This document shows, in pieces, positions 7,389 through 57,316 of a DNA stretch of 64,000 nucleotides; position 1 is the stretch's first letter, and the number at the start of each line of letters is the position of its first letter. Position numbers and translations under genes: made by a program. The stretch lies in assembly GCF_035084215.1 (NCBI RefSeq), contig NC_090356.1, positions 16,616,001 through 16,680,000 of the forward strand, written 5' to 3'. The notes beneath the pieces were generated by a model. The model was not told where the DNA came from, did no database searches, and saw only the letters and a program-made list of their open reading frames with translations. The stretch comes from Heptranchias perlo. Lineage: Eukaryota.

Positions 7389-7606
7389 ATAGCTGATGAC
7401 AGGCTCAATGCATGAAAAAAGGTCAGGCTTTTAATAGGCCTAGTGTCCTTTTTCTGTTCCTAAAATGTTTAATGTTCTTTGTTGTGAGTTTTGCCACTCA
7501 CATTCTCAGGCAGTCCAATCATTCAGATTGTAAAAGCATAGCAACATTTTACATCATGAATCTGTGACATAAAATTATGTTTTCAATTGATCTACCAATA
7601 ACACAA
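7389..7606. repeat. Outer inverted repeat, left arm (partner 9275-9492)
   Basis: About 218 bp, reverse-complement identical to 9275-9492 with one mismatch seen. Confidence 0.92.
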
Positions 7607-7876: not shown

Positions 7877-8194
7877 CATAACCTGCCAGATTATGGGGAC
7901 CCTCTATTTTGCCAACATATACATAGCGTCACTTTTCTTAGCCTCATTGGCATGGATCGTTGTATCGCAGTGATCCACCCAAGAAAATACATCAGGATGA
8001 GAAACACAAACTGCTCGAAGATAACCTCGGCTCTGGTGTGGCTTGTATCTCTGGCCATCATGCTTCCCTTAGTCTTTGCAGGTTCACTGAACACCACTTT
8101 CAAAAACAACAGGACAGCTTGCTTTGAGAATTTCCTCCCTGAGACCTGGAGCAAGAGGATGGCAGCGTATAAAATTGTGGCATTCTTGTTTGGC
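7877..8194 (+). pseudogene. Partial duplicate (TM3 to TM5) of the P2Y/LPAR6-like GPCR
   Basis: Near-identical to 14448-14766. It has a 1-nt deletion (acattagc to acatagc), DRY changed to DRC and CpG transitions, lacks the N- and C-termini, and hits a stop at 8198-8200. Confidence 0.93.
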
Positions 8195-9274: not shown

Positions 9275-9492
9275 TTGTGTTATTGGTAGATCAATTGAAA
9301 ACATAATTTTATGTCACAGATTCATGATGTAAAATGTTGCTATGCTTTTACAATCTGAATGATTGGACTGCCTGAGAATGTGAGTGGCAAAACTCACAAC
9401 AAAGAACATTAAACATTTTAGGAACATAAAAAGGACACTAGGCCTATTAAAAGCCTGACCTTTTTTCATGCATTGAGCCTGTCATCAGCTAT
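9275..9492. repeat. Outer inverted repeat, right arm
   Basis: Reverse complement of 7389-7606. Confidence 0.92.
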
Positions 9493-13322: not shown

Positions 13323-13331
13323 ACCCTTAGT

Positions 13332-14175: not shown

Positions 14176-15147
14176 ATGAACAGCTCACAAGAGTTTTTCT
14201 CGCCCTCGAACTGCAGTTACGAGGCTCAGTTCCAGTACTATTTATTTCCAGTAGTCTTCAGCATTGTGTTCATTCTGGGCTTGATTGGAAATGTCTCGGC
14301 CTTGTGCCTACTTACCAAGAAAATGAAGAAAGCCTCCCCATCCTATGTGTACATTACAAACCTGGCTGTTGTAGACATCATTTACATTTGCACCTTGCCC
14401 TTCAGAATCTACTACCACATAAAAAAGAACGACTGGCCCTTTGGGGACATAACCTGCCGGATTACGGGGACCCTCTATTTTGCTAACATATACATTAGCA
14501 TCGCTTTCCTTAGCCTCATTTGCATGGATCGTTACATTGCAGTGGTCCACCCAAGAAAATACATCAGGATGAGAAACACAAACTGCTCGAAGATAACCTC
14601 GGCTCTGGTGTGGCTTGTATCTCTGGCCATCATGCTTCCCTTAGTCTTTGGAGGTTCACTGAACACCACTTTCAGAAACAACAGGACAGCTTGCTTTGAG
14701 AATTTCGACCCTGAGACCTGGAACAAGAGGATGGCGGCGTATAACATTGTGGCATTCTTGTTTGGCTTCATCATTCCGTTTACAGTCATTATGATATTTT
14801 ATCCTTTAGCAGCCAAGCAAATAGCCCAGCTTCAAAGTAGCATCCACAAGGAAAAGGCTTTGACAATGATCCGGGTCATTTTGGTGATCTCAGTTGTTTG
14901 TTTTGTCCCTTATCATGTCACCAATTTATTCTATTTCCTCACACGCTTGGACTTTATTCAAAACTGTGCATTCAGCAGCTTTCTCTACAAGACCCGGCGA
15001 GTTACCATGGCCTTAGTCAGTCTCAACAGCTGCTTAGACCCTCTGATATATTACTTTACAACCTCCCATTTTCAGCTAAATTATGATAGAAAAAAGAGAT
15101 CGCTTCAACAGGTTTACAGCATTTCCTGGCGCAAAACTGTAAGCTGA
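14176..15147 (+). CDS. Class A GPCR of the P2Y/non-EDG LPA receptor group (LPAR6/LPAR4-like), single coding exon, 323 aa
   Basis: Seven hydrophobic segments with GN (TM1), NLAVVD (TM2), WPFG..C, DRY, FIIPF, CFVPYH and NSCLDPLIYYF (DPxxY is typical of P2Y-like receptors). N-glycosylation sites at MNSS and NCS. ATG at 14176 is preferred; an in-frame ATG at 14104 lies upstream of a likely acceptor at 14150. Confidence 0.92.
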   Translation: MNSSQEFFSPSNCSYEAQFQYYLFPVVFSIVFILGLIGNVSALCLLTKKMKKASPSYVYITNLAVVDIIYICTLPFRIYYHIKKNDWPFGDITCRITGTLYFANIYISIAFLSLICMDRYIAVVHPRKYIRMRNTNCSKITSALVWLVSLAIMLPLVFGGSLNTTFRNNRTACFENFDPETWNKRMAAYNIVAFLFGFIIPFTVIMIFYPLAAKQIAQLQSSIHKEKALTMIRVILVISVVCFVPYHVTNLFYFLTRLDFIQNCAFSSFLYKTRRVTMALVSLNSCLDPLIYYFTTSHFQLNYDRKKRSLQQVYSISWRKTVS

Positions 15148-15595: not shown

Positions 15596-16235
15596 CACAT
15601 GTATAAAACGGTAACTCTGAAAAAATGCTTGCTTCGCAATGGTCTTTGCCGAGTTCTGTAGTCTAAATGACAGTTTTCTGCCTTTCTACCCTGGTGCGCT
15701 GGTTAACCTCTGAAACCATGGAACTGACACTCAATAGGTGGTGATCTGTGATTTGGTCACTGGCACCCAGTACCATTTTTCCAAGTCTCTCTGTTCTTGT
15801 AGCAAACACTGTGGTCAAATTTGTCACAGCTCAGTCTCCATGGCAGCACCCTGTGGCTGTGCTCAGTTATCCCACAAAAAGAAAATAAAAACGTGTAATA
15901 AAATAATTATTTACGGTAAGAAGTTTAATTTCACCTGTTAGGGTGTCACAGGTTTATCACAGCTGTTAATTTGTTTTTTTACCTATTTAAAAGTGAGTTA
16001 GCGTTAGATTCATAAGACCAAGGGTTGCTAATGTTCATTAAGGCTAATTACCATTTTAGATAAAATGGATACAACCGAGTACCTACTGACCAAAGTAGAA
16101 TTAGAAAGGTTTCAGGGAGGAAAAGAATGGTAATAAGACAGGAGTACATTTTCCTATGTGCAAAGTTTAACAAAATAGTAGGTGCAGTTACACTGGGGAA
16201 GAAAAGCAGTTATAGAAATTTGTTTCTAAAACAAA

Positions 16236-16378
16236 ATCAAACTACTGCGGAGGCTGGAAATCCGAAATAAAAACAGAAAATGCTGGAAACACTCAGCAGG
16301 TCAGGCAGATAACGTGTTTCTCTCTCCACAGATGCTGCCCGACCCGCTGAGTGTTTCCAGCATTTCCTGTTCTTATTA
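16236..16378. mobile_element. Penelope-like terminal-repeat remnant in fold-back (inverted) arrangement
   Basis: aaatgctggaaacactcagcaggtcaggcag pairs with ctgcccgacccgctgagtgtttccagcattt. Same repeat family as 47016-47155 and 50975-51294. Confidence 0.7.
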
Positions 16379-16489
16379 TGTAAATTTATTTTATTACGAC
16401 TTCTAGTCCCAGTTTTCCTCAAGGCCTGAAATGAGAGTAGAGCAATGGTTTCAAACTTGTCTGTAAGAGCGATGCCTGAATATTTTAGC

Positions 16490-25400: not shown

Positions 25401-28400
25401 ATGGTGCTCACTGAGACCCAACTCTTTAACAGCCTGTTCAGGTGAAACCAGGCGAAGGCTCTATATGTAAAAGCAACAAGAGCGACTGACATTAATTTTT
25501 TTTTGCTTTCAAGTAAACCCCAAATTTACTTTAAAAATACATGAAACATACATTACTCACATTATCCTTTATAATCAGTGTACCATGCATTAGTTTAGGT
25601 TTCTTTGGATCAGGTAACGGACCTATAGAACAGGAAAAAAGTCATACAGACATCACAGCAAATATCAATCTCAGTAACTGTGTTTACATATCTAATCACT
25701 CACATTTCATGAAAACTTTGTTTTGTTACATTATTTTATTACATTGAAGTTTTGGTTCCAATGCTCTGCATAAAATTGTAATGAACTTTATTTTAATGCA
25801 TTGAACCTCATTATAACAATGTAATTTTGTGGCTTCTCAGCTGCACTCACTAGATCCTGGTCAAGACCCATGTTCCTGGATCTCCAGGCTGTTACTTATG
25901 CACCTGAATTGTGTTTCAAACTAGCCCGGTCTCTGAATACAAATAGAGTGGTAACCTCCTGCATTACTGTCCAACACTGGCCTGCAACTCTGCTGTCTTT
26001 GAGCCCTGGTCAGTATGCTGAACAATCAAAATGCCAGTGATGGAAATGGAAAGTTCTTCAATTTGTGCTCCGAGTGTCGGCATCAGCTACTCTCAAGTCA
26101 GCTAATATACAGTGAAGCTATTTCTATATTACCTCAATAATGTTTCTTAACCTACACACAATAACAAAACTTCCACTGCACTTATGAGATATTTCCATTT
26201 CTGATTTCTTCTATTCTTGTGGTCGCACAGTGTTAATGAAACTTGGTCTCAATTGGTGCAGATAAGGGGATGTTTTTTATTGTACAGATTCGCTCTCGCT
26301 AGAAACTGAATTGAAAATACCCAAACTATTTCACTTAGGTCCCTTGCAGATATCAGAGATGATGTTAATTCCATTAGCTACACTGGAATCCAAGCCTCAG
26401 AGGTGAAAGGACAATGCACTAAAGTGTCACTTACTCTACCACCCTTGATTTCCTGCATTCTTAGACTTACTTTCTGGAACACTCCATTGATATCACCCCT
26501 GTAGTTATAAAACCGCATATCATCCAAATCATTGTGAACAATGCCACGGGAGATCGACTGCTGTCTAAAACGTTTTGCAATGCATCCATCACACTTTAAA
26601 CTGAACATCCTTTAATGAAATATATCAAAAAAGAAAGTCGGTCATTAGCCACTAACTGACCTCAGAATATACCTAGCAATTAGACCTTGGACCTTAAAGG
26701 GACAGGCCAAGTTATAAACTGCTCCACCTTTGCAGAATAATATATTGTGCATTATCTTGTATAACGTTCCTCTCCTTATTAGACTATCATCTAATTTACT
26801 ATAGCAATATCATGTGAGATCTGCCAGTGGTTTAAAAATAACACCTCCCTTGAACTCTTCTGAAGACAGCAAAATTAAACCATCTGCTCATATCTTTATT
26901 GGAATTTAATTTCTAAATTTTTACATTGTATTTATTGCTTTTAGTTGGTGTCAACCTTGGCTCAGTGGTAGCACGCTCGCCTTTGATTCAGAAGGTTGAG
27001 GATTCAAGTCCCACTCTAGAGACTTGAGCACGTAATCCAGGCTGGCATTCAGTACAGTACTGAGGACTGTCAGAGGTGCCACCTTTTGGATGAGACGTTA
27101 AGCCAAGGTCCCATCTGCCCTATCAGGTGGACATAAAAGATCCCATGGCACTATTCGAAGAAGAGCAGAGGAGTTCTCCTGCTGTCATGGCCAATATCCT
27201 TCAACCAACGTCACTAAAACAGATTTTCTGGTCATTATCTCATTGCTGTTTGTGGGACCTTGCTGTGCGCAAATTGGCTGCTGCATTTTCATTACAACAG
27301 TGACTACACTTCACAAGTACTTCATTAGCTGTAAAGCACTGTGGAATGTCCTGGAGTCATGAAAGGTGCTATATAAATGCAATTCTTTCTTTAGTTTGCC
27401 CCCCGTTTCTGAAGCGAGGACTCTTGCTGGGAAATGTTTCCACAGGTGCTGGTCGTCCTCTGATACCTCGCTCAAGTAGTTCTCCTTCATAAGTGAGTGC
27501 CGATAATAAGCGCTGGCCGGCTATTCGACACTGGGGAGCATCACTGCTGAACCCCAGCCTTTCCTCGGTCAATATCCCAATGCATCCATTTTCCAGTAGA
27601 TATTACTGGAAAGTGGTCATAAACAGAATGCCTACACGATTATTTCCCTGGAGCAAGCTGTAGCCCCGCCTAGCTGAGTTCAGCTAACTCAGCACAGACC
27701 AGTGATCAAACCTCGGGCCTTCTTGGCCTGCGTGGTTCAGTTCCATAGCGGGCAACTGGCCAACTAAGCCATGAGCCAACCATACTTTTATTTATAAATA
27801 CAATTTCAGGTCTTTAAAAAAATGAGGCCATTTTCTAAATCTTAAGGAAAGACCAATTCTATTACCAAGAGTTGAATCCCTCTTCAGCAGGCCGAGAGAA
27901 ATATCCACAGGAATATTGGGATTAGTAACTATTGTAGCTGTCTCTCCATTGGCTGGCATGTAGCAATTAATACCTAGACAAAAAACAGGTAAATAAATAT
28001 TAAAAGTCTTCTTTCCAGGACATTACACTAAAAGTGTATTTAAAATTACACTAGCAACAAAATATAGTTTACAAAGGTTAAAAGTATGAGGGAAATTTCA
28101 CCCTGGCAGTGGCATGGCAGGACATGGCATGTGGAAGTGCAAACTGCTAGGACAGATAGGCCAGCAATAATGATACTGGGAAGGGCTTCCATCTGCTGGA
28201 GGAATGAGTGGGCTTATTCCTCACTGGGGATGGGAGGAAATTGCACATCTGAGGGGCATGTGTGGGCCCAGCAACATCAGATAATATTCATGAACTAATT
28301 GCTACTCAACAGGAACAAAGAAAAAGCAACATCAAAGATAACTTTTCAACAAGCAGAAGTGTGTGAGGTACATACGGTTTCCGCTTCATTTCAGCTGCGC

Positions 28401-31400
28401 AGTGAAATGGTTCAAACTGGTATTTGTAGGAGAGAAAAGGTCACTACTTCTAAAGTGTGTTTTTCTGGTTCATTTTTGTGCTTATTAAGGTGATAGATAT
28501 CAGTGTTCAAGAACAAAAAATGTTTTTATTTTGGGCACAATTTGCTTATATCACACATATTCAAGGTGGGTATAGCAAGACCAAATACCCTGCCAGAGAA
28601 CAGCACTCCTCCTATATCAGTGTGATTTTTTTCATTTCACACACCAGCCATCCCGATGGCCTCTCAGTGAGCTACCGAGTTAGTGCCAATCCATCCCATA
28701 TTGTGGGCTGTTCTGGGCTTCGCAAACATTAGAAACTAGGTTGACACTACTCAAATTCATTTCACTGGGATCGTTACAGTTGTCAGAGAGAACACTTTTG
28801 TCTCAGCGGTCTGGGCAGGATTCAAATCCAGGTCTCTAGAGATGAAAGGGAAATGAGCTAATTCACATAGTCAGTCAAAGCCCACTAAATATCACAAATT
28901 CTAGCTAGAGTCCATTTGGATAAGGTTGTGCATAAGAGATTGCTGGTTAAAATTGAGGCATATGGAATTGAGGCAACTTTGTGGTATGAACAGCAAACTG
29001 GTTGGGAGGTATGAGACAAAAATTTGGGATAAAAGGAATATTGTTGATTTGAAAGGAAATGGCAAGTGGTGTCCCACAGAATTGCTGTTAGGACCCCAGC
29101 TTTTCACTTTATAATAAATGACCTGGCTTTGTACATAGAAGGAAGTATATTCAAGTTTGCAAATGATGCTAAGTTAGGAGGTATAGTGAACTATTAAGAG
29201 GAGGACAGATCAATTGTGAATGACAACAATTGTCTAATGTAATGAGTCTTACAACACCAGGTTATAGTCCAACAGCTTTATTTGAAATCACAAGCTTTCG
29301 GAGGCTTCCTCCTTCGTCACCTGATGAAGGAGGAAGCCTCCGAAAGCTTGTGATTTTCAAATAAAACTGTTGGACTATAACCTGGTGTTGTAAGACTCCT
29401 TACATTTGTCCACCCCAGTCCATCACCGGCATCTCCACATCACAACAATTGTCTAGCCTAACTGTGAGGTAGTACATTTTGGACTTAAGAATGGCAAATG
29501 GGAATCCAGTCTAAATGAGGAAGCACTAAGGGGTGTAGACAAACAAAGGAATTTAGTGTTCCAGGTATATAAATCATTAAGAGGGATCAAATAAACTGAT
29601 GGGGCGCTGGGCTTCATCACAAGACGTATAGAATATAAAAGCAAAGTGCTTAAAGTATTATGTTGGCTGTCCTACCTCAAGGAGGACAAACCGGTCTTAA
29701 ACATAGAAACATAGAAAATAGGAGCAGGCCCTTCGAGCCTGCTCCGCCATTCATTCAATATGATCATGGCTGATCCTCTACCTCAATATCAAATTCCTGC
29801 TCTCTCCCCATAGAGACACAATTTGGAGAAAGTACAGCAATAATTCACCAGGATGATACTTGAGTTGATGGGATTTAGCTATAATAAAAGATTGGATAAA
29901 CGTGGGTTATATTCCCTTGAGAATAATTACCTTGAGGTTAAGGGGTGATCTGACTTAAGTATTTGTAATGATGAAGGGAATAACATGGTACAGAGGGAGA
30001 AACACTGCCCTCTTATATGGGAATCTAGATCAAGGGGACATAAATTTCAAATTTGAACAAAGCCAATTAAAAGTAACTTCAGAAACAATTTCTTCATGCA
30101 AAGGGTTGTGAGAATGTGGAATGTACAGAGCCAGAAGCAGAACCAATTGAGATGTATCATAGAAAAGTATCAATAAGGGATATAGAGAAAAGGGAAGGGA
30201 ATTGGGATTAAAAAGATAAAAACATGGTTAACAAACAGGTGGAGCACGCTGATTTGCTGAATGCCTTGTCTTGTTCCTATTTTTATATAATCCTTAATAT
30301 TTGCTTCACATGAAAAGATCAGATCTGGGCACTGAAAGATCTCGTTAGCCTACGTTTGCATTGCAGAGGATAATATAATACATGAGATTTAAGTGAGACT
30401 TACCAAACTCCTGCTCAATTTTCTGTTTAAGGAATCCCATTTTCTTAGCCTCCCCATGGACCAGCAGCACATTTTGCGGTTCTGCTTGACGGATAAGTTG
30501 CATGATGCCTTTGGCGTCAGCATGTGCACTGAATGACATGTATTCCACCTGCATCTTCACTTCTAGCTGGGAAGGATGTGTTAGCAACATAAGTAACCTG
30601 CAGTATCATAAACGTTATTTTCAATTGAATTGAAATGAAATTATTTTTAATAAAGAAACTCAAAATCTCAATTTCAAATTTAGATTTAATGCTAAAAAAT
30701 TCCTGAAGATGAAGTATTATGTTTAAGATGCATTGAACCATAAATCTATTTTGTAACATATATTTTAACTCCCAATGCCCAACAACTCTAACAATAGCTC
30801 ACAAGGAGACTAGATCAGCTTGACTAATGATATCAACTTGCTGAGAAATAGGCCTCCTCAGCTAGTTTCAGCACATAAAAGCATTTGGCATCTCACGATA
30901 TACAGTTACAATTTACAAATTACAGTGCTCGTTTACTAACAGAGGAGTTAAGAACATAACCTTCCTCGAGTATAAATCTACAGAAAGATCAGGGACAGAG
31001 ATGGATATAAAATAGGTTAAAAAATGGTCAGAAAAACTAAAATAGAGAATGATATTAAGATGGTGGGGTATATAAAGCGCCATTAATTTGAATGGATTTT
31101 ATAAATATATTCAAAGCAAACACTTAGTCAGTGAAACAGCAGCAGCCCTGAAGGAACCCCTGCAGTAAGTCAGAAATTGGCTCAATCAGAGGAAACAAAG
31201 GACATAGAGGGAGGTGATTAGTGGGTGCCTGAGGATCAGTGTTGAGGCTTTTTTTCTTTTTTTAACAATGTACATAAATGATTCAGGGTGGGGACAGAAA
31301 CAATGCTGCTTAAGTTTGTTAATGATATGAAATTGGGCAGAGGGGAAGGAAGAGCTACAAATAACAGGGAATAAGCAGAACAATTACAGGGAATCTGGAT

Positions 31401-34400: not shown

Positions 34401-37400
34401 GCACAACCAAATGAATTGAAACAAATCAAAACAACAGAGCAAAATACAACAGCAACATACCATTGGTCCGGGGTTGTCAGCGTAGGTCCTATCAAATGTC
34501 TTGATGTGTTTGAACTCAAACATATTTCTCTGCACAAATGTCTTCCTAATTTTTTGATTGGTCCACGTAATAAATAATTTATAATAATGATTGGCTTTTT
34601 CAGTCAGTCCAGTTGAGAAGTAAATGGGTGCCTTCAAGTTCATTCGCTCCCTGCATGTAGAAATGACAATCAAATTCTGAAACAGTCTTTATCAGTTACT
34701 GTATTATCATGGATGTTTTAGCTGTGGTAAGTAATCTTCCTCAGGTTATTAAGTTATTTTCGTACAATCCATAGTAATGCAAATTATATGTGGTCTGTGG
34801 AAGGAGTGGGTTTAATGATCTAAATGGTCTTTTCTCATTAAGTTCTTAGGACATTTCCAATCTCTGCCTCTGAGAATGTTGGCTGTGCTACTAGAAATTT
34901 CTTTATGGTTGCAAAAGATTTCAGAGCTCCTATTGCCATTCTAGATATAGGTGTCAGCCTTGGCTCAGTGGTAGCACTCTCACCTCCAAGTCAGAAGGTC
35001 ACAAGTTCAAGTCCCACTCCAGAGACTTAAGCACAAAATCTAGGCTGATACTTCAGTGCAGTACTGAGGGAGTGCTGAGGGAGCACTGTCAGAGGCACCA
35101 TATTTCAACAAATTGCATTTTTATAGCACCTTTAACATAGTAAAAGGCGCTTTCAGATGAGTCGTTAGTTCAAGGTCCCATCTGCTCTCTCAGGAGGACG
35201 TAAAAGATCTCATAGTACTATTCAAAGAAGAGGAGGGGAGTTCTTCTGGTATCCTGGGCAATGATCATCCCTCAACCAACACCACTATAACAGTGTTTTT
35301 CATTGCTGTTTGTAGGACCTTGCTGTGTACAAATTGGCTGCATCATTTCTCAACATTATAACAGTGACTACATTTCAAAAGTGCTTCAATAGCTGTGAAG
35401 CACTTTGGGATGTCCTGGGGTTATGAAAGATGCTATATAAATGCAATTTCTTTCTTTTTAACTCTACATCTAAGTTGGCACCCGATCAACAAGATCTAGA
35501 TCAAGGACAATTCCACGGCCAATATGGAGTCATGAACAGGCTTGGCAATATAAGCTGGCAACTAGAGTCTCCAATCAAATGTTGTGAATCTCAGACCTGC
35601 ACAGTGGTTTCTCTATCACCTACTGCTGCTGTACCTTCAAATAACACCTTACAAAAACAACAATTTTTAAAACTAGCACTTAAGCTCAAACCTACAGCCT
35701 AAAAGCCTTGCCAGCGACACCCATTTCCTGAGAATGAATATAGTCATTTTTTTAAATGACGAACAGACAGTGTTCTAACACAAAGTAATGCAGTCCCTTG
35801 TAAATTTATTTTAGTAGTTCTCACCCCTGGATGTAAAAAGTTTTACATTACTAGTGGATCTCCCAAACGTTGATTCATGGTGAGATGGAGGATATAATGT
35901 GTTTTAATAACAGGGTGTTATGCCACTTAACGTACAATATATTATTACACAATAATCTTCTCTGCAGTCAGTGCTGGAGAAAAATAAAAAATAAAAACAC
36001 ATTCAAATAAAAGAGCAAGTACTGGGCTGGGAGGAAATGGCAGGAAGTAGGGGATTGGTTTGTGGGAAACAGTAGGTGCAAAAACCAGACCCGTGAGGGA
36101 ATCGGGGGGAGGAAGTTACCATCTGGAAGTAATCATGGGAGTACTTGGAGACCGGGGACATGATTTTAGCTCGGGGCTAGGAACCCAGCACATGGGTAGA
36201 CATTCGCACGGGGAACCCAGAAGTCAAGTGAGTGTGTTGCAATCTCTGATCACAACTCAACTGAAGGTAAGTATTTGTGCTTCTGAGTTTCCCACCCGCC
36301 AGGCAGCCAGATTGACAGGCTGGATGCCTGTCGGGAGGGAAAGGAGCCGCAAATCAGAGAGGAAGGAGGGAAAGAGAGATCGAGGACCGTGGAAGTAATT
36401 GGTGGGTAGGGGCGTGGACGACATTAGGTGGGCCTTGGAGAAGATCGGGGCGGGGGGGGGGGGGGGTCGGTCGGCCGATTGCGGGGGTCCTGTTGGTCTA
36501 GGTGAGCTTGTTGGGCCTGGATGAAGCACTCCTGCTATTCCTGGCCCACAAGCATTGTAATAAAGGCACTCACCTCATGGATCCAGCCTTTCTCGCCTGC
36601 TTTCACGTGACGTGAATCAGAAGCGATGGGAAATCCAGGCAGGTACGGTTAAATTAGTTTTACATTTCTAATACACGAAAAATTAGTGCCTCAACTATCG
36701 CAATGAGGTACATTGCCCCTTTGAGTATCGACCCGCCTGCTTTAAGTCGGGATGGGACTTCCGGGTTTCTGTTGCGCGGACATCCTAATGCGCCTGGGTT
36801 AAATCCGGAAGTTTTTTTTTATTTGTTCATGGGATGTGGCCGTCGCTGGCGAGGCCAGCATTTATTGCCCATCCCTAATTGCCCGAGGAGGTGGTGGTGA
36901 GCCGCCTTCTTGAACCACTGCAGTCCGTGTGGTGAAGGTTCCCCCACAGTGCTGTTAGGTAAGGAGTTCCAGGATTTTGACCCAGCGATGATGAAGGAAC
37001 GGCGATATATTTCCAATTCGGGATGGTGCGTGACTTGGAGAGGAACGTGCAGGTGGTGTTGTTCCCATGTGCCTGCTGCCCTTGTCCTTCTAGGTGGTAG
37101 AGGTCATGGGTTTGGGAAGTGCTGTCGAAGAAGCCCTGGCAAGTTACTGCAGTGCATCCTGTGGATGGTACACACTGCAGCCACTGTGCGGCGGTGGTGG
37201 TGAGGGTGAATGTTTAGGATGGTGGATGGGGTGCCAATCAAGCGGGCTGCTTTATCCTGGATGGTGTCGAGCTTCTTGAGTGTTGTTGGAGCTGCACTCA
37301 TCCAGGCAAGTGGAGAGTATTCCATTCACAATCCTGACTTAATAAGAACATAAGAAATAGGAGCAGGAGTAGGCCAATCGGCCCCTCGAGCCTGCTCCGC

Positions 37401-40400
37401 CATTCAATAAGATCATGGCTGATCTGATCCTAACCTCAAATTTAAATTCATGTCCAATTTCCTGCCCGCTCCCCGTAACCCCTAATTCCCTTTACTTCTA
37501 GGAAACTGTCTATTTCTGTTTTGAATTTATTTATTTAATGATGTAACCTTGTAGATGGTGGAAAGGCTTTGGGAAGTCAGGAGGTGAGTCACTCGCCACA
37601 GAATACCCAGCCTCTGATCTGCTCTTGTAGTCACAGTATTTATGTGGCTGATCCAGTTAAGCTTCTGGTCAATGGTGACCCCCAGGATGTTGATGGTGGG
37701 GGATTCGGCAATGGTAATGCCGGTGAATGTCAAGGGGTTAGATTCTTTCTTGTTGAAGATGGTCATTGCCTGGTACTTGTCTGGCACGAATGTTACTTGC
37801 CACTTATCAGCCCAAGCCTGGTTGTTGTCCCCATTTCTGACCTTATGTTGCAGGGAAGGTCATTGAGGTGTTGGTGCCGGGATGCAGTCCCGCTGAAGAA
37901 TTCAACAATTTTTACTACCCACTCGCCTCCAGCCCACCCATTCTTGGGGATTAAAATGACCCCCCTGGAGTCTGTGACTTGGAAGCATTCAGTGTGGCTG
38001 GGTCTTCAGTGCATGTGGTGGGGGAGGAGAAAGATAGTGTCAACAGTTGGAGGTACAGAAGGCTGGAGTATGGGTTCCATCAGGACTCATTGGAAGCTCG
38101 TGACTCATCAGAAGCACGTGAGATTGCTGAGGTTCAGCAGCACTTCAGCAAGGCCTATGGTTTGATTTGCAAGCATGGTGGAGGGATGGGGAATAGAGGG
38201 GCTCCTGGGTTTGGTAATATTAGAGGGGAGGATCTTGGGATTTAGCGGCATTGCTCCTATTTTCCAAAGTGCTGTTGGATATTTTTTATAGCTTTATAGC
38301 TATCCCCTCTCACACTTTCAGAGGACATATTTCAACAGCTAGGTGGGGCGGAGGGAGAGGGGGCCTCATAAGAGGCCACAGTATGAGGAACAGTAGGTAT
38401 ACGAGGGTTGTAGATTGGAGGAGGACTGCAGGAGGATACAAAGATAGGGAGTGGTAAGGCTATGAAGGGATTTAAACACAAGGAATAGAATTTTAAACTT
38501 GAGGTGTTGGGGGACCGGGAGCCGATGCAAGTTAGAAAGGACAGGGGTTATGGGTGCTGGATAGCATAAGAGCAGCAGAGTTTTGGATGCGCTGGTGTTT
38601 AGAGAGGTTGGAGGATGGGAGGCCAGCCAGGATAGCATTGGAATTGTTGAGGCAGAATGTGACAAAGGCATGGATGAGGGTTTGGACAACAGGTGGGCTG
38701 AGCAAGGGAGCAGAGGCGGGTGACGTTATGGAGGTGAAGTAGATTAATCTTTGTGATGGAGAGGACTTGAGTTGGAAGCTCAGCTCGGGGTCAAATAGGA
38801 CAGCGAGATTGCAAACAGTCTGGTTCAGCCTAAAACAATGGCCAGGAAGGGGAGAAAGAATCGGTGGGGGCTGAAGACGACGGCTTTGGTCTTCCCAATG
38901 TTTAACTGGGGCAAACCACGACTCATCCAAGACTGGATGTTGGAAAAGCAGTCTGACAACACAGAGGCAGTGGGAGGGTCGAGCGAGGTGGTGATGAGGT
39001 AGAGCTGGATGTCATCAGTGGATGCTGAACCCGTGGCTGTGAATGATGTCAGCCAAGAAACATATTAAAACTTAAAAAAATAAAAAGCTATAATATCACA
39101 TTTAACTAACGAGCGAGAACAGGAAAGGGGGGCGGAGACAAATGCAGCTGAAAGGAAATTGTTTAAAACAATATTTTTTGCTACACTTTATATAAAATAT
39201 ACCAGCATTTAAAACAGTATATTCAAACAATATAAAGTTAATACTGCAGTAAAGGGTTAGTGCTAACATGTGAACGGCTTTATTTGTTTGAGCACCAAGG
39301 TGAATTAACTGATTTTTTTGTAAGTGACTGCTCCTGGAAGCCTGGTACTGTCGCGATCTAAGGGTTAAGGCAGGATATATGAACAAATACAACTGATTGC
39401 CAGCTGGTTTTCATAACTTTCAGAATTTTTGTAAACTTGGGCAGCAAATGCTGGCCTGAATTTTTACTCCCTCTGTGACTAATCTCCACCCACCGCCTTT
39501 CAGCCCTCATGGAAAATAATCTCCAACATCTTTAACCACGCCATTTTTTTGAAAGCTGACAAAAATTACCAGAAGGTTTCCAGCAGAATGCAAAGCTCCT
39601 GGGCTCGTCCGAGGGCAAATACAGGAATCAGCACCTATTAAAATGAAGGCCTGTCAAAATGCATTCGTCACAACATTCCACGTTTTGTTAAAAATTCTAA
39701 ACAAACATTTTTTAAAAAATTACATTAATTCACATTTTATTCAGGGGGTTTCCCTGGCTGCCTAGTGGGTAAAGGCACTGTCGGGTGTAGCACTAAGCCA
39801 GACAGCCCATTGAATCCCAGTTATACTTGCTGGTCTATGCCGAGAGTTAGCTGATCTCAGTCCAGTTGCTGCAGTTAGCCTCAGTAGCCCCAGGCTAGGG
39901 AGGGGGGAAAAAGACAGGGTTTCTGCTTCGAGTTGCTGACTCATGCTGGAAAGATGGCGGGAGAGCAAAAGCTCAGGCTCCTCCATGCAATAACCTGCTC
40001 AACTTGGCTTTCATTCCCCAGGTACAAAGCCACAGGAGATCCACTAGTAATATATTAAAAATCTTACATCAGCACGAACTTCCTGTCAACTATTTAATTA
40101 TAAATGGAACATTTAAAATGGTAATTGCAGCACCACTACTGACAGGAGGCTGTGATCACCACATGACAGGTTTGCAGAGGCCGTTTCCATTTTAAATGTG
40201 GACACAAGCATTTATAATAGAAGAATACATAAAAATAAGGACAGAATGTATAACTTTAAAATGGGAAATGAACTACATCTGCTCACTCTGGTCCAATTAC
40301 CCCTCCCCCACCCCATGCTCTAACCCTGCTTCATTAGAAGACTATGCTTAGTTTTGACTACCTGTGTGCAATGCCATGGGAGATTGACTAGTACACGTTA

Positions 40401-42745: not shown

Positions 42746-45700
42746 AAACATTTACACTATATATATATATATATAAAAAAAATATATATAAACTTTTACA
42801 CTTTTTGTCAAATTAGTATATATTTTTATATAAACTGTTTCTTTAATATATTTTATACATTTACACTATTTGTCTGATGAATATACATATATAGATCTCC
42901 ATCCATCGGACAGTATACTATTTGTGGACACTGGTCTCTGAGCAGCTGTACCACTGACCCGCACTAGACGCCAATATCCGCAGTACAATGCTCCCGTCCA
43001 ATCTAACTTTAACTCCCTCCCTTGCTGCAAAGTGATTGGTAGCTGACGTCACCTCAGCAGCATCTCCACCAGAGAGCAGTGGTTTGGTGCGCGGACGGAA
43101 TGATGGCGTGCGCGGCACACAACAAACTGCTGTGCAGCCACGCACGCGCGCAGCTTAAAGGGAACAGTGCTGATAACATATTAAACTTAACCTGAAAAAT
43201 TAATTCTGCGGCTTCTTTTCAAATCATCTAGAAAAACTCAAAGAAACTCAGACATCGATTTACACCATGAGAAAATAAAGCCTTCCAGTTGTGAGTCAGC
43301 ATGTCACTCACTCTGACAGAATCCTACTGATATATGACTATGCCATCGCCCTGGAATCAATCGAGTGATCATTCTGGTGCTTATGAGAATTGCACAAGAA
43401 GCTATGCCAACTACAGAGACAGCAGTCATGCAAGACCTGCCATTTCTTCCCCACCTCCCCTCATTCACCTGCAGGCTTGCGAAACAGATTATAATTTAAA
43501 CTGGGTAATTTCATGAGTCAGTGGTATGTGGGTTTCAGATCCAGCTAATGAATCTCGTATCTTGCATCCAAATCAAAAGCAACAGGGTAACACATTAAAA
43601 GTGGCCAACTGGCTTGAAGACAAGAAATCTGTGAGCTGCTCCATATGAAAAAAACCAAGCTGGTTGAGAGATGACAAAGTCCATTATAGATGTGAATTGC
43701 CAAACTTCATTGTGCCCCCTTTATAAGACAGTACTGCTCTGAACAGAAATATATCCCATTTATGTTGAAGGGTGGATTCCATAAAACCTGTGACAACTGG
43801 GGCATATGCAATCTTGGGCATGCATTGTTCGAAAGTTCACTTCTGGCCACAGAATGGAGAAAGTCCACAGCTGTACAACTGGTCTAATAGACAGGCTGAG
43901 TCCTCAGCTTCCCTGAGACCAGGAAGAAAGGCTGGCTAGGCCAGAAGCAAGTTTTTACATTTAATGCTGGTGGCTCCGGTGAAGAAGCCAAGCACAACCT
44001 CTTCAGTGGGTTTCCGTAGTCCTCCAAAAGCAGTAGCACCAACTCATCTACATTCAGCAATGCTGTCGAATTTGGGTCAGCTACCAATGGCGGTACAATA
44101 AAAAGGACATATACGGAATGTAGGGTTATGTACCCTTATAAAGATGTGTGCTACTGAGACACCTCCTGGATGCCTGTGGTATTACAAATATTCCATGTTG
44201 CACCATAAACATTTTCAATAAAATAGAAAGTATAGTGAAGGGTATACACCCAAAACACTGGCCTGGAATTTCCTCTAATGGTGTAACTGGCAAGTTACTC
44301 ATGAACCTTTAAATATCTATGCACTAGAACGCCCAGGTCTCTCTCTTTCTCCACCTGCTTTAATGCTTTTCCCTAAAGGGTGTACGTATGTTCAGCATTC
44401 ACCCTGCCCACATGCATAACACTGCACTTTTCAAAGTAAAACATCATTTGCCAGTCACAAGCCCAATCCCCCACGCATTAAGATCCGCCTGATGCAATTG
44501 AGCATCGTCTACAGTCCTGACACTCGCACAAATCTTAGTATCATCTGCAAACTTGCAGATCGTGCCCCTAACACCTACACCTACATCTAGATCAAGATCA
44601 AGATCATTAATAAACATAGCAAAGAGCAACGGTCCTAACACCGATCCCTGCGGGACACCACTTTTTTTGTCCCTTTACCTCTTTGCTCATTGAAAAGTAA
44701 TTTCCCTCAGAAGGTTCGGTCTTTCCCGGGTTTATTTTCTGCTCAGCATTTGCTTAAGTTCCTTTTTTGTGCTCCTCCCTTGAGTTAGAAAGAACTCTGT
44801 TGTTGCCAATACATCTGTAGTTTAAAATGTCTCCTGCAAGTTGGAGGCTTTGACTCAGCGCCCACCTCCGCCAGTACTCAGCGATCTGAGCGGAAAGCAG
44901 TGGGCATGGAAATTCAGCATCCAGCCCTATCACTGCAAAAACAAAATCACCTGACACAATATAGTGGCTCGGGAGAGTGCAATCAGAGGGTGGAGACTGG
45001 TTTAAAAAAAAATTATGAGCCTCAGGGAAGCTCTGGGAGGCTAAGTTATATCCATTGCTCAGCATTGAGGAAAAGCAGTAATGTTGTAACATACAGAGTC
45101 ATTCGCCCGCAAACTGCAATTGAAGTAAATAGGATTTGAAGCACAAAAAGAATGAGACGCAATTCAGACTCACCCTAAATGTCGATCTGGTGTCATGTTG
45201 TAATCGCCCTGCAGATATTTTAAAACAAAATAAATACAATGAGAGAGAAAAAAAAAATTACAGGCCAACTTACAAGAAAACTCAAGTAAATTTTTATATT
45301 TTGTTGATGAGGCTTGTGACCCGTTCTCAGCGTCCTTGTACTTTAAATAAATTGAAGACCCAGTCTTTGCTTTCAGTCAGGCTTCAGTGGAGCGCTACAA
45401 ATAACCTCAGCACATCCTGGGCTAGGCAGGCAGGAAAGGCCAGCCTAAGTTCCACCCCTGATTGCTATCCAGTGGCTCGTGCTGGAAAGTGTGGATGTGT
45501 GAACGCTGAGTGCGAACATGATTTAATTTGGTTGTGATGCCCCCCACGACTCAGTAGCCTGCCAGCACTCACAGTGTAAACTCGCACGTGACAATGGCTA
45601 TTGCAGGCCACCAAATACCGACAGAACCATAGTCCAGCATCAGTCAACGGCTTCAGTAAAGGTGAAAGTAAATAAAAAAATAAACGGGACAAAAGTGGCT

Positions 45701-48410
45701 ACTATATGTGATCACTCAGAATATTGAGTATCACAGCATGTGGATCTCTCAGCGTATCTGGCACTATGATTCCCACAGTACACTATACAAGTAGTTCAAT
45801 GTAATGAGAGATATTATAGTACCTCAATGATGATTAGTATCCAAGATGGCACGGCCAATTAAAAAAAAATAACATTTAAATCAAAATAATTAACTTTGAG
45901 CCTTGAAGCAATTGCTTGGCATTACTCTCTTGTAGTAATAAATGAATAGTGTAGTTGCCTGAGGTTCATTCATACTCACAGTATACACCACCGATTCTGA
46001 GCCCACCCGGATGTGAACCATGGCTGCACCGAGCACATGTCCAGCGTAATATGCTTTAATTTCGAGCTCATCATCAACCTAGAAGATCATTTCAAAAATA
46101 CGAATCAGTATCTTCCAATTCAGGCAGACAATTCTAGAAGCCCTGTTTGCAGTGTAGCACCAGGATATGCTGGCAGGCAGTATAGCATGGGAAGTCAGTG
46201 AATCATTCTGTACTTGGATCAAGAGGCAGAGTAGAAAAACCTTTTATTGTAGCTAACATTACGACAAAAACCCTATACAGGCCTCACCTAAAATACTATA
46301 AGCCTGGACATCAAGGTCAGATTGGTATATTATCTATGTACCCCGTGCATCTATTCCTCTAGTACAAGTTAAAAATATTTTCTTACTTTTTAAACAAAGG
46401 AGTGTAACCAATACATTGCTTACCTGTACTGTTTGATGCAGATGAACAGCTACAACTTTCTTCATGCAGTCTTTTATCATCTGAGAAGTAAAGAAGTTGG
46501 TCTCTCCTTTCTTATCAACTGTAATCTTCCTATAATCTTCTAAAAGGATTGGACAAATGGCTTTTGTAGGGTGTGTCATGTATATAGGACCATCGTAACC
46601 AATCATCTCACTCATGTATGGAAGGGCACCACAGTGGTCCAGGTGAAAATGACTGTTAAGAACAAAGATTATATTGTAAACACTACAATAAGTGCACATT
46701 TTTTTAAATCTCAGAAATTTAGGATTAATTTTGTAAAATGCTTGCTTTGAGATCAAGGCTAGGACATTAACAGTTCATCTATCACCTACATTTTTCAGGA
46801 ATCCCTTTAGGATTCATCCAGTCTCTTCTCTCTATAGACTCTAAATGGAGGATGATTTTTACAGGCCGCAAAAAAGAAAACAGATTCTATGTGGAACTAA
46901 AGAAAATCTGTCACAGCGCACTAAAATAATCCTTACATTTGGAAAATAATAGTGAAACCTATTTTAAATCTTTTGGGACTAAAATAATTGTTTGTGACAG
47001 ATTGCTGACACATCAAGCAAAATACTGCAGATGCTGGAAATCTGAAATAAAAACAGAAAATGCTGGAAACACTCAGCAGGTCAGGCAGCGTCAGTGGAGA
47101 GAGGAAGGTAGGGTTACCGTTTCAGGTCTAGGACCATTCGTTAGGGTTCTGACAAACTACAGTTTTTCCAGAATGCCGTGGATCATGTCCTCTCCTACAC
47201 AAAGTTCCACATCGCATTCTTACCAAGCTACACTGGCTTCTTGTACCTGAACAGATCAATTACAAGGTTCTTGTCCTCATGATTAAATCACTATGGCCTC
47301 ACTTCACTACACCCTATCACCTCTATTGTGCATGTACCCTCCACTTCTCCAGCTCTACTGTCATTCCCTACTCTCGCCTCTCCGCCATTAGATGTTCCTT
47401 CAGTACCTACTGGAATCAGTGGAATGAAAATCGAGCTGGTTCTGTAACAGCGGGTGATCTGCAGCGCCAGATTACCGCCCATGTGGTGAAGGAGAAAATT
47501 TACCTCGAAGTCTCCAAGTGATCAGTGCTTTAATAATGTACGTTGATTTTTGGTCAAAAAGAGGAAAATATGGCCCTTTATTCCTTACTTATTTCCAATA
47601 AAATTCAAAATAAGCACTACAGCCAGGAGCCATGCCTCCTCTATACCTCTACCTCTGCTCCAATAATCTATGAGAGAAACATTTACCTGATGATGACACA
47701 GTCGAGGAATTCTGTCAGTCTTCCATTTTGAGTTATGTAAGAGAAATCAGGAAAGCGTCTCTGAAATAACAATAAGAAGCAATAAATCACAAACTACCGT
47801 ACTGAGCCACACGGACCAGGAAAGTTCTGGTTCAACTCCCAGTCTGTGCGACTAGAGCAGCTGGGGAGCAACAATTGGCCTTAAGTGTCCCTGGTTGACT
47901 AGAATTCCTTTTCATCATCACTATCAAGTGACGCCTAGTGCACGTGTGTGGGTGGGTGAAGAGGGGGATCAGGCTTGGCTATGATGCTCCCTAATGTCAA
48001 ATATCCTGCCAGTATTCCAGGCTCACACTCGCAGACTGGCATCTTGGACAAGGCACCAGAGGCTGTGAAACTTTATCCCACAGAATGAGTCAGCAGCATC
48101 CAGGTCTGTACAGGATATTCCTTTATATAATAATTGCTCAGCCAGTGAATACTGCACTATTTTCTCACATTTTTCTGCTATTCTATAAATACATTTACTT
48201 ACATCATCATTATATCCCATGTGCATTCCACAATCCAGCATCACGTTTTTCCCACCAATTGTGACCAGGATACAGCTACGGCCCACATCCTGGCCCGCCC
48301 CTGAAAAAGCAAGGACTTGTCACTTTGTGAGCTCATTGTACTATGAATTACATCCCTTAAATCTTAATGTCTGAATTCTTACCCAACGGTGTGACTTTTA
48401 TTTCAGGCAT
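19394..48410 (-). CDS. INTS11: Integrator complex subunit 11 (CPSF3L), MBL/beta-CASP endonuclease; 17 coding exons, 601 aa
   Basis: Exon lengths of 28, 98, 74, 229, 99, 35, 139, 65, 190, 84, 90, 163, 108, 62, 143, 130 and 69 nt total 1806 nt in one open frame, with all introns GT-AG. Peptides [52 protein letters not shown] and DEELGSYL match vertebrate INTS11. Confidence 0.97.
22550..23060 (-). mobile_element. Highly degenerate RTE-like LINE fragment in an INTS11 intron
   Basis: Broken minus-strand peptides [22 protein letters not shown] resemble the RTE motif WTLT...LNAFHHRCLRRILGI; ISKAATS resembles RIGKAAT. Confidence 0.45.
23225..23354 (-). CDS. INTS11: INTS11 coding exon 16
   Basis: [43 protein letters not shown]; AG/GT flanks. 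Confidence 0.93.
25318..25460 (-). CDS. INTS11: INTS11 coding exon 15
   Basis: [31 protein letters not shown]...IYNHLK; AG/GT flanks. Confidence 0.93.
25561..25622 (-). CDS. INTS11: INTS11 coding exon 14
   Basis: [20 protein letters not shown]; AG/GT flanks. Confidence 0.92.
26945..27390 (+). mobile_element. tRNA-derived SINE (Deu-domain/SacSINE1-like family)
   Basis: A box TGGCTCAGTGG, B box-like GATTCAAGTCC, and tail AAGGTGCTATATAAATGCAA. Colinear copy at 34950-35455. Confidence 0.75.
27400..27775 (-). mobile_element. Second SINE family, old copy (others at about 33340-33700, 39745-40020, 40430-40740, 45340-45690, 47800-48070, 52900-53275, 55020-55370, 56130-56700)
   Basis: Shared blocks such as gctaactcagcacagacc and gttagctgatctcag...ccccaggctagggaggg recur on both strands. 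Confidence 0.6.
27866..27973 (-). CDS. INTS11: INTS11 coding exon 13
   Basis: [35 protein letters not shown]; AG/GT flanks. Confidence 0.93.
29237..29441 (+). mobile_element. Non-autonomous palindromic Penelope-type element with 14-bp TSD
   Basis: Direct repeat ACAACAATTGTCTA at 29223-29236 and 29442-29455; internal ~170-bp palindrome 29236-29406. Confidence 0.85.
29316..29354 (+). ncRNA. Minimal type I hammerhead ribozyme
   Basis: GUCAC-CUGAUGA-A-GGAGG-aag-CCUCC-GAA-AGCU-U-GUGAU: core CUGAUGA and GAAA, 5-bp stem II, stem I GUCAC/GUGAU, palindromic AGCU stem III, as in Penelope-associated minimal hammerheads. Confidence 0.8.
30404..30566 (-). CDS. INTS11: INTS11 coding exon 12
   Basis: [54 protein letters not shown]. 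Confidence 0.95.
31215..31900 (+). mobile_element. Degenerate CR1 LINE fragment
   Basis: Peptides [11 protein letters not shown]...[12 protein letters not shown] and EYCIQICS...[10 protein letters not shown] are typical of the CR1 ORF2 C-terminus. Confidence 0.75.
32534..32623 (-). CDS. INTS11: INTS11 coding exon 11
   Basis: [30 protein letters not shown]. Confidence 0.95.
32743..32826 (-). CDS. INTS11: INTS11 coding exon 10
   Basis: [28 protein letters not shown]. Confidence 0.95.
33775..34260 (-). mobile_element. Degenerate CR1 3' fragment
   Basis: The atcatagaat...ggccactcggccc tail motif and body resemble the other CR1 copies (about 41030-41300 and 48770-49480). Confidence 0.55.
34461..34650 (-). 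CDS. INTS11: INTS11 coding exon 9
   Basis: [63 protein letters not shown]. Confidence 0.95.
34950..35455 (+). mobile_element. tRNA-derived SINE (same family as 26945-27390)
   Basis: TGGCTCAGTGG A box, GTTCAAGTCC B box, colinear body and tail. Confidence 0.75.
36811..37870 (-). mobile_element. 3' part of the same APE-RT LINE family as 10116-13322, interrupted by a CR1 tail at about 37341-37545
   Basis: [31 protein letters not shown] and [19 protein letters not shown] on the minus strand; same 3' tail and A-tract. Confidence 0.9.
38365..39050 (-). mobile_element. L2-type LINE fragment
   Basis: LIHAFVT...[10 protein letters not shown]...QRIQNSAA and [31 protein letters not shown]. Confidence 0.8.
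39570..39634 (-). CDS. INTS11: INTS11 coding exon 8
   Basis: [22 protein letters not shown]. Confidence 0.95.
40839..40977 (-). CDS. INTS11: INTS11 coding exon 7
   Basis: [46 protein letters not shown]. Confidence 0.95.
41571..43169. mobile_element. Non-autonomous hAT-superfamily DNA transposon, 1599 bp
   Basis: TIRs caatgttccctctaa / ttaaagggaacagtg (13 of 15 match); perfect 8-bp TSD CTGATAAC at 41563-41570 and 43170-43177. Confidence 0.88.
42701..42790. repeat. (TG)n(TA)n microsatellite
   Basis: Directly visible dinucleotide runs. Confidence 0.9.
44290..44662 (-). mobile_element. CR1 RT fragment
   Basis: [21 protein letters not shown]...CKFADDTKI. Confidence 0.8.
45174..45208 (-). CDS. 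INTS11: INTS11 coding exon 6
   Basis: [12 protein letters not shown], 35 nt; AG/GT flanks. Confidence 0.93.
45980..46078 (-). CDS. INTS11: INTS11 coding exon 5
   Basis: [33 protein letters not shown]. Confidence 0.95.
46424..46652 (-). CDS. INTS11: INTS11 coding exon 4
   Basis: [42 protein letters not shown]...HQTVQ, containing the HxHxDH metal-binding motif. Confidence 0.96.
47016..47155 (-). mobile_element. Penelope-like terminal-repeat remnant with decayed hammerhead core
   Basis: Same repeat as 51159-51294; the minus-strand core reads CUAACGA...GAAACGGU. Confidence 0.65.
47687..47760 (-). CDS. INTS11: INTS11 coding exon 3
   Basis: [24 protein letters not shown]. Confidence 0.95.
48203..48300 (-). 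CDS. INTS11: INTS11 coding exon 2
   Basis: [32 protein letters not shown]. Confidence 0.95.
48383..48410 (-). CDS. INTS11: INTS11 coding exon 1 (start codon)
   Basis: MPEIKVTPL(G) followed by a GTAAG donor; likely acceptor at 48427-48428 just upstream. Confidence 0.93.
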
Positions 48411-50974: not shown

Positions 50975-51102
50975 TCTGTTCTGACGCAAGGTCATCGAGC
51001 TGAAACCTTAACTCTGTTTCTTTCTCCACAGATGCTGCCTGACTTGCTGAGCTGCTCCAGCATTTTCTGTTTTTATTTCCAGTATCTGCAGTATTTTGCT
51101 TT
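50975..51102 (+). mobile_element. Inverted Penelope terminal-repeat copy with mutated hammerhead core
   Basis: Reverse-complement similar to 51163-51294; the core reads CUGACGC...GAAACCUU. Confidence 0.7.
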
Positions 51103-51158
51103 TGATTCTCTTGATATATAATCATACAATCCTTATCTCCCAACCTACTAACGGAATC

Positions 51159-52155
51159 AAAAGCAAAATACTGGGGATGCTGGAAATCTGAAATAAAACC
51201 AGAAAGTGCTGGAGAAGCTCAGCAAGTCGGGCAGCATCTGTGGAGAAAGGAACAGAGTTAACGTTTCAGGTCGATCACCTTTCGTCAGAACTGGAAGGTG
51301 TTAAAAGAGTTAAAGTTTTTGAGCAAGTACAGAGCCAGGGAAAGGGAGGGAGGAAAGAACAAAAGGGAAGGTCTGTGATAGGGTGGAGGGCAGGAGTGAT
51401 TAAATGACAAAAGGGATGATGGTGCAAGGCAAGGAAGGTGATGATGGGACAGGTTAAGAAATAAAAGATTGATCAGGAGTAGCTGTAAATGGCAGCAGCA
51501 GAACCATTACCAGCACTAGCTGACCGAAAAAATGGGAGCAGTGGTTACGATCTGAAGTTATTGAAGTCATTGTTGATTCCGGAAGGTTGTAAAGTGCCTA
51601 AACGAAAGATGAGGTGCTGTTCCTCGAGCTTCCGTTGATCTTCATTGGAACAGTGTAAGAGGCAGAGGACAGAGAGGTCAGAGTAGGAGTGGGAAAAGGA
51701 ATTAAAATGGCAAGCGACCAGCAGGTCAGGGTCACGCTTGCAGACAGAGCGGAGGTGTTCAGCAAAGCGATCATCCAGTCTGCGTTTGGCCTCACCGATG
51801 TAGAGGAGACTGCATTGTGTGCAGCGGATTCAGTATACTAAATTGAAAGAAGTACAAGTAAACCGCTGTTTCACCTGGAAGGAGTGTTTGGGGCCCTGGA
51901 CAGTGGGAAGGGAGGAGGTGAAGAGGCAGGTGTTGCATCTCCTGCACTCACACGGGAAGGTGCCGTGGGGAGGAGAGCGGATGATGGAAGAGTGGACCAG
52001 GATGTCACTGAGGGAGCGGTCCCTTCGGAATGCTGAAAGGGGAGCGGAGGGGAAGATGTGTTTGGTGGTGGGATCGTGCTGGAGGTGGCGGAAGCTGATA
52101 CGTCGAATGTGGAGGCTGGTGAGGTGGAAGGTGAGGACAAAGGGGAACCCTATCA
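51159..52155 (-). mobile_element. Penelope-like retroelement 3' part (Cys-rich linker + GIY-YIG endonuclease + terminal repeat), disrupted
   Basis: AFRRDRSLSDILVHS, PCECRRCNTC, FTCTSFNLVY*IRCTQCSLLYIGEAKRRLDDRFAEH, and RKLEEQHLIFRLGTLQPSGINNDF. Confidence 0.9.
51253..51294 (-). ncRNA. Minimal type I hammerhead ribozyme in the Penelope terminal repeat
   Basis: Minus strand AGUU-CUGACGA-A-AGGU-gaucg-ACCU-GAA-ACGU-U-AACU: intact core, stems I and II, palindromic ACGU stem III. Confidence 0.7.
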
Positions 52156-56577: not shown

Positions 56578-56668
56578 CTGATGCTTAGTGTCCAGGCTGA
56601 TGTATGACGAATGGTTACAGTGGAACTGTAACCATTCGTCATTCATCAGCCTGGACACTAAGCATCAG
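56578..56668. repeat. 44-bp near-perfect hairpin (3-nt loop, one T-T mismatch)
   Basis: 56578-56621 pairs with 56625-56668 base by base except 56603/56643. Confidence 0.92.
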
Positions 56669-57316
56669 CCCAGGAAGAGTCATTGCTTTCTCAGCAGGAG
56701 AGAAAAACATGGAAAAAAAGGGCAACAAAAAAAAAATTGATTTCACAATTAAACATGAACTTTAATTTTGTTAGGAACACCAGGGGCTCGATTTTAGGGT
56801 CGGGTTACCTGCGGGTTTCCAGCGGGGGGGCCCCGAAAATCCCGATCTCCGATCACGTGACCGGATTCGGACGAAATCCCGGCCACTTCTGGGTACCGCG
56901 CTGACGTGCGGGGCTGCACGTGAAAGCCCCGCTGGTGGGAATCCCGCAGGCAATTAAAGCCAGCGGGGTTCCACTTGAGAGCACTTAACTTGCTCGTTGT
57001 GGTCAGTTAATGAGCTGAAGCAGCTGTCAAAAGAGGAAGTGTGGGATTTTAGGTTCAACGCAGTCAGTTTCCCACACTGGGGGAAACAGTACCCTTCAAA
57101 CCAGGCGTGTTGCAGCCAGCAGCCTGTGGCAGGTGCCAAGGTGCGCTCCACGGGGGAGAGCCCACACCCACGCAGGAGGCCACCGCGTCACATAGGGCAA
57201 CCCCTGCCCTCCACCAACCCCCGCCAAGCCAGAGGACAGACCGACACGAAACCGCAGCCCCAGTCCGAGGACCCACCCACCTACCCTGCACAACCCCTCA
57301 CACCAACACCTGCCAG

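Follow-up and report, generated by a model that had tools for sequence, protein, structure and literature searches.

The window analysed here, a 64,000-nt stretch of Heptranchias perlo DNA, contains a 205-bp palindromic insert that lies between direct repeats and carries a hammerhead ribozyme motif, raising the question of whether the palindrome is itself a mobile unit, as a preliminary description had it, or a trace of the way in which a longer element inserts. The insert consists of a forward 125-nt unit (hammerhead, AATAAA and a 35-nt tail) to which an inverted copy without the tail is attached head-to-head, the pair being flanked by 14-bp target-site duplications (TSDs). We consider it very probable that it is the 5’-truncated end of a Penelope-like element (PLE) whose mirror half was made during insertion. 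Fold-back insertion of PLEs has been described before and is nothing unusual; this locus adds one example. A search of the literature on Penelope in sharks and elasmobranchs found no paper describing the family, and supplements may list chondrichthyan hammerhead families.

Layout of the insertion

29223..29236, no strand: left TSD, 14 bp, AT-rich (sequence repeat search)
29237..29319, minus strand: inverted tail-less copy of the element end, missing C3 of the hammerhead and the stem I 5’ strand (self-BLAST, descriptor, contig termini)
29317..29324, no strand: fold-back centre TCA-CC-TGA, where the two copies overlap by 3 nt with a 2-nt loop (sequence, fold)
29317..29441, plus strand: forward copy of the element end, a pLTR-like unit of 125 nt (contig depth and loose ends)
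29360..29365, plus strand: AATAAA, putative poly(A) signal (sequence)
29442..29455, no strand: right TSD (sequence repeat search)

The TSD reported previously is a perfect 14-bp repeat (ACAACAATTGTCTA; 29223-29236 and 29442-29455) that encloses the 205-bp insert, and beyond the satellite at 1-1200 it is the sole exact 14-mer direct repeat with 100-400 bp spacing in the 64-kb window. Ten of its 14 positions are A/T, marking an AT-rich site. The near-perfect palindrome, first put at about 170 bp, spans 171 bp (29236-29406; 94% identity by BLAST), with three substitutions and one indel over the 86 columns of its arms; the computed hairpin of the insert has a free energy of -138.5 kcal/mol (z -22.7), which none of 200 shuffles equals. 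The inverted arm halts at the inner, tail-less terminus of the family (the equivalent of 29406/7), and the 35 nt at 29407-29441 on the plus strand, which are rich in C and A (17 C and 7 A), have no mirror copy on the other arm; this unmirrored segment is the diagnostic portion of the insert. There is no ATG-started frame of note in the insert, in agreement with the earlier reading of a non-coding insertion with an inverted terminal copy and a TSD, and BLAST finds no second copy of the family within the 64-kb window.

A typical Penelope insertion has an inverted pLTR overlapping a direct pLTR, a 31-bp tail on one arm and an 8-10-bp TSD (PMC3846280), and PLEs in general have an inverted 5’-truncated copy and a 30-40-bp tail at one end (PMC8557442; both papers, like the others compared below, are cited from excerpts of their text). 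Four of the five traits that define an EN+ PLE insertion are present at the locus: an inverted 5’-truncated copy adjoining the forward copy, an optional tail of 30-40 nt on one end (here 35 nt), a TSD of variable length at an AT-rich site (here 14 bp), and a minimal hammerhead inside the terminal repeat. The fifth is an end sequence attached to an RT plus GIY-YIG ORF; a search of the window found no RT/endonuclease gene for this family, so the case for PLE parentage is one of structure and analogy. The excerpted accounts of EN+ PLE insertions (PMC3846280; PMC8557442) share with the locus the head-to-head overlapping copies, the one-arm tail of 30-40 nt, the variable TSD and the AT-rich site, whereas the locus has the terminal 125 nt only and no ORF, and its TSD is 14 bp rather than the 8-10 bp of the rotifer examples. 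The link to Penelope-like elements drawn in the preliminary description is supported.

The hammerhead motif and its predicted fold

29317..29353, plus strand: minimal type I hammerhead with 4-bp stem I, CUGAUGA, an extra A, 5-bp stem II, GAAA, palindromic AGCU and a predicted cut after U29349 (descriptor, with features from PMC4209133)

The claim of an intact plus-strand hammerhead is borne out at 29317-29353, where the CUGANGA, GAAA and UH core elements, stems I and II and a palindromic stem III are all present. Positions C3 to A9 lie at 29321-29327, the extra A at 29328, the strands of stem II at 29329-33 and 29337-41, G12 to A14 at 29342-44, AGCU at 29345-48 and U17 at 29349, with stem I formed by UCAC and GUGA. 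The predicted cut, after U29349, falls where the preliminary description placed it, and the assignment to the minimal, dimer-type class is likewise right. The minus-strand copy reads GUGACGA, lacks C3 and stem I and fails to match the descriptor, again as described. A motif search had been suggested as a check: a strict descriptor matches twice in the window (29321 on the plus strand and 51288 on the minus strand) and never in 100 same-size Markov-1 nulls, while Rfam yields nothing at gathering score for the insert, with the hammerhead family absent among its 13 weak matches. The miRNA-type matches among the weak Rfam hits were rejected as hairpin artefacts; hammerhead-bearing fold-back hairpins can pass for microRNA precursors or MITEs.

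The motif resembles the hammerheads of metazoan PLE pLTRs in its short loopless stem I, the extra base between positions 9 and 10.1, the G10.1-C11.1 pair and the palindromic 15.2-16.2, and also in the occurrence of dispersed single and opposite-strand copies in thousands, but differs in its 5-bp stem II and in having no Rfam match (PMC4209133). The same excerpts report thousands of dispersed minimal hammerheads with opposite-strand pairs 100-700 bp apart, and no cleavage of monomers and weak cleavage of dimers. Poseidon of Anolis (PAc; PMC11167929, excerpted) is similar in that two 3’ ends bound an A/C-rich tail and copies keep the whole hammerhead; it is unlike the locus in that the PAc ORF starts in stem II, whereas the ATG within the core at the locus opens a frame that stops after nine codons.

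The preliminary description suggested that the long hairpin could gate cleavage. Computed folds give -138.5 kcal/mol for the whole insert when free and -92.5 kcal/mol with the ribozyme stems forced, and because the hairpin outweighs the ribozyme fold by this gap of ~46 kcal/mol it is likely, on these models, to block cleavage rather than gate it. Gating is further disfavoured because the left arm would be transcribed first and because stem I is weak in the unit (computed probability <0.1 in the 125-nt unit alone). For a dimer, the double-hammerhead fold is computed at -18.9 kcal/mol, compared with -27.7 kcal/mol for the best dimer fold.

A second Penelope-like family in the window

51150..52102, minus strand: 5’-truncated PLE of a sister family, with CxxCxxC linker, GIY-YIG-type endonuclease remnant (one stop), 3’ UTR and a hammerhead at 51288 (descriptor, translation, relatives)
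16210..16391, no strand: fold-back stump of the sister family, with a one-arm tail and a decayed 16-bp flanking repeat (13 of 16 positions match) (self-comparison)

The only other hammerhead in the window, at 51288 on the minus strand, has the same layout as 29317-29353 and belongs to a sister PLE family. According to the excerpts of PMC8557442, PLE endonucleases are marked by a CxxCxxC linker and by two cysteines between GIY and YIG, and the frame at 51545-52102, interrupted by one stop, has both; the zinc finger of the linker is of the Neptune/Nematis type. The frame’s own Pfam match is weak (E 0.044), although five of its 11 relatives match 98% of the query at 60-64% identity, and two of the six relatives scanned have RT plus GIY-YIG. 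Comparison of the protein with viral contigs gives 26 pattern matches, none of which was confirmed. Because this family has a GIY-YIG remnant, a hammerhead and a like stump, in which head-to-head copies occupy 16229-16377, a true PLE in the genome makes the same stump shape as the insert at 29223-29455. The sister family also has a tail-to-tail neighbour at 50978-51110 (plus strand) and a decayed end at 47015-47144 (minus strand).

Copies of the family in public sequencing contigs

The family was surveyed in contigs of four of nine listed public runs (X1, X5, X6 and X7), with three runs coming from one sample. In X1, 20,865 contigs are placed on the element and 72% of these are at least 95% alike; their summed depth is 1.7-5.5 million on the element versus 17 and 26 for two flank contigs, and as summed depth is not copy number the ratio of ~2 x 10^5 gives no more than a rough idea of the scale. 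The family is clearly very large, and its copies are fairly uniform. It is also present in X5, which carries a second organism label, and in X6 and X7, and the locus flanks are absent from all three. X6 and X7 may be RNA, but none of the listed runs that contain the family is recorded as such. Pattern scans found no family loci in viral contigs or in prokaryote genomes, and none that is genuine in metagenome contigs, where the lone match (L001) was rejected as chance, having neither the CUGANGA box nor the remainder of the unit.

Figures for loose ends come from 24 of 537 records and those for joints from 15 of 148. Among the loose ends listed, mixed flanks follow 29406/29407 in 43 and 72 contigs of X1, and follow 29442 in 129 contigs of X1, 17 of X6 and 21 of X7, showing that the family has two 3’ ends ~35 nt apart, at 29406/7 and 29442. 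The consensus behind 29442 starts TGGCT in two runs and TGACT in a third, with agreement of ~0.4; many copies may run on into ATG GCT past this point, possibly the start codon of the parent or a ragged tail end. Contigs depart from the window sequence before 29317 in all four runs (126 in X1, and 5, 19 and 20 in the others), from which it follows that many copies do not share the centre of the locus. The pile of loose ends at 29317 was considered as a fixed 5’ end of the family and rejected, since copies extending further upstream would also depart there, and some do. No loose end falls at the predicted cut (29350) among the 24 of 537 listed, which hints weakly at uncleaved RNA as the source of the copies.

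Variants are listed at 16 of the 125 unit positions and at none of the 11 hammerhead core positions, an absence expected by chance with P 0.15-0.21. Within the CUGANGA box, variants are listed for N7 alone, which has three states (C 34%, G 57%), and conservation of the core while N7 varies is suggestive, within chance.

Twelve of the 15 joints listed (of 148) connect the left arm to the right, each at a different position, and represent other fold-backs with other centres, although central deletions of longer palindromes would look like such varied-centre joints; contigs cannot give the frequency at which the exact centre of the locus recurs. These 12 joints have depths of 76-643, or 3 to 38 times those of the flank contigs, implying that some palindromic forms or centres recur or were amplified as units. 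A small share of probability goes to a stand-alone, SINE-like, non-autonomous PLE derivative at very high copy in a cartilaginous fish, some of whose fold-back forms (those with joints 3 to 38 times flank depth) would move as whole hairpins with the ribozyme off.

Also improbable is a non-autonomous family of palindromes with a functional hairpin, whose full-length transcripts a PLE protein would return to the genome in trans. One TSD does bound the entire insert, fold-back joints reach a depth of 643 against 17-26 for the flanks among the joints listed, and pLTRs can mobilise sequence in trans according to the excerpts of PMC3846280. A fixed-structure, MITE-like palindrome has shared ends and one centre, however, and the 15 joints listed have 12 centres, while 126 contigs depart at 29317. 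Moreover, the unrelated PLE family at 51150-52102 produces the same shape, and in the computed folds hairpin formation eliminates the ribozyme structure. That the 205-bp palindrome is itself the mobile unit, as in the preliminary description, is not supported, other copies having other centres or departing from the window sequence at the centre.

Three records in X6 and X7 are contigs of 1.5-2.2 kb at depth 78-407 that end in the family unit; one of the three has ~2.1 kb upstream of a sense unit, which could be an autonomous element or a host 3’ UTR. At 29679-29740 the window has a short high-depth repeat (a AACATAGAA-type microsatellite plus tail), to which one listed joint ties the family tail.

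Origin of the palindrome

The preliminary description called the element retrozyme-like. Non-LTR retrozymes (PMC7229834; bioRxiv 10.64898/2026.07.22.740005) are likewise non-coding, hammerhead-bearing and related to PLE ends, with long TSDs if present, and they occur in a chondrichthyan and are related to pLTRs (bioRxiv 10.64898/2026.07.22.740005). Descent of the insert from such an element, whose tandem repeats are hammerhead-cut to circles, as a single monomer or a broken dimer would account for its hammerhead and for one listed joint that steps back 35 nt. We nevertheless regard this as very unlikely: retrozymes are tandem direct repeats giving circular RNAs, and the excerpted preprint defines them by two or more tandem units, whereas the locus is a single head-to-head palindrome with one complete hammerhead and no tandem direct repeat, and the head-to-head layout and optional tail are PLE traits. 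Least probable of all is a palindrome formed after insertion, by DNA-level fold-back repair or by a second copy landing head-to-head, for despite the 3-nt microhomology at the centre, the non-identity of the arms and the abundance of the family, a single perfect TSD surrounds both arms, the inner terminus of the family is precisely where the inverted arm stops, and both arms share a minority C at 29396 (family T 67%).

For the preferred reading, a truncated PLE end mirrored during insertion, we propose the following course. A PLE protein would nick AT-rich DNA and begin reverse transcription inside its RNA, using the outer one of two start sites and so producing the tail; this follows the excerpts of PMC11167929, in which two internal RT start sites delimit the tail and targets are AT-rich. 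Copying would proceed as far as the 5’ boundary of stem I, and on uncleaved RNA, as the whole ribozyme is retained in the copy; the template may have been a full-length PLE RNA or a short non-autonomous one. The centre sequence suggests that the 3’ TGA of the strand may then fold or switch back onto its own TCA and be extended as far as the inner start site, which would yield an inverted arm without the tail, and repair of the staggered cut would leave the TSD. The ribozyme would be a passenger from the pLTR of the parent, predicted to be locked in the hairpin in the locus copy. Hammerhead cleavage occurs only with protein and is dispensable for insertion in vitro in the excerpted study (PMC11167929). 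The inverted and forward arms, which differ at four places, could come from two templates. Junction palindromes have been read as self-priming (PMC3846280), and the excerpts of PMC3846280 and PMC8557442 leave open whether inverted PLE ends arise by self-priming or by template switch; a family such as this, whose very many young copies end sharply at two 3’ positions and fold back at many centres, is good material for testing how these ends form.

Host locus and age of the insertion

28890..30100, plus strand: decayed LINE RT remnant hosting the insert (translation of the site without the insert; 62% DNA match to the RT remnant at 44534-44663)
27974..30403, minus strand: intron of the host, a beta-CASP nuclease gene, flanked by exons 30404-30566 and 27866-27973 (RMMBL E 9.4e-19; GT/AG borders, in-frame join)

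The host gene is one that we take to be INTS11, and the LINE remnant is presumably CR1-like. None of three fragments of the remnant has a Pfam match, and a single-copy target could not be confirmed through the host LINE; the site appears to have been rearranged, and it is not spanned by any close LINE copy. Because the host intron is on the minus strand, host pre-mRNA would carry the copy without C3, and the intact ribozyme lies antisense to the gene.

Recent mobility, as first proposed, finds little in its favour. The arms differ at 4 of 86 columns, and a perfect TSD was rejected as proof of recency, having a ~0.52 chance at the divergence of the arms. Flank contigs cross both TSDs unbroken into the element (28950-29265 and 29423-29724) and no empty-site joint is seen among the 15 of 148 joints listed, which suggests that the one sequenced individual has no empty allele.

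Other elements in the window

The window also encodes a 7TM receptor, GLTP, LINE RTs and a Harbinger-type transposase, and one of its transposon proteins has its best relatives in rays and sharks. The GC-rich Harbinger-type DNA transposon lies at 57053-60579, with a 495-aa DDE_Tnp_4 frame (plus strand) and a Myb/SANT frame (minus strand). A young LINE family has three copies ~90% alike with RT frames (11449-13323, 62368-63924 and 36814-37830), and a tandem satellite with a 38/76-bp period and ~92% identity occupies 1-1198. Inverted repeats of 218 bp at 7389-7606 and 9275-9492, 99.5% alike and ~2.1 kb apart, are possibly those of a young DNA transposon, an inner fragment of which (7877-8194) is 94% like the 7TM gene at 14448-14766. 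Short palindromes are present at 56578-56668 and 2564-2631, the first of which has a TGAUGA/TGACGA-like stretch close to its centre and is possibly the stump of a third family.
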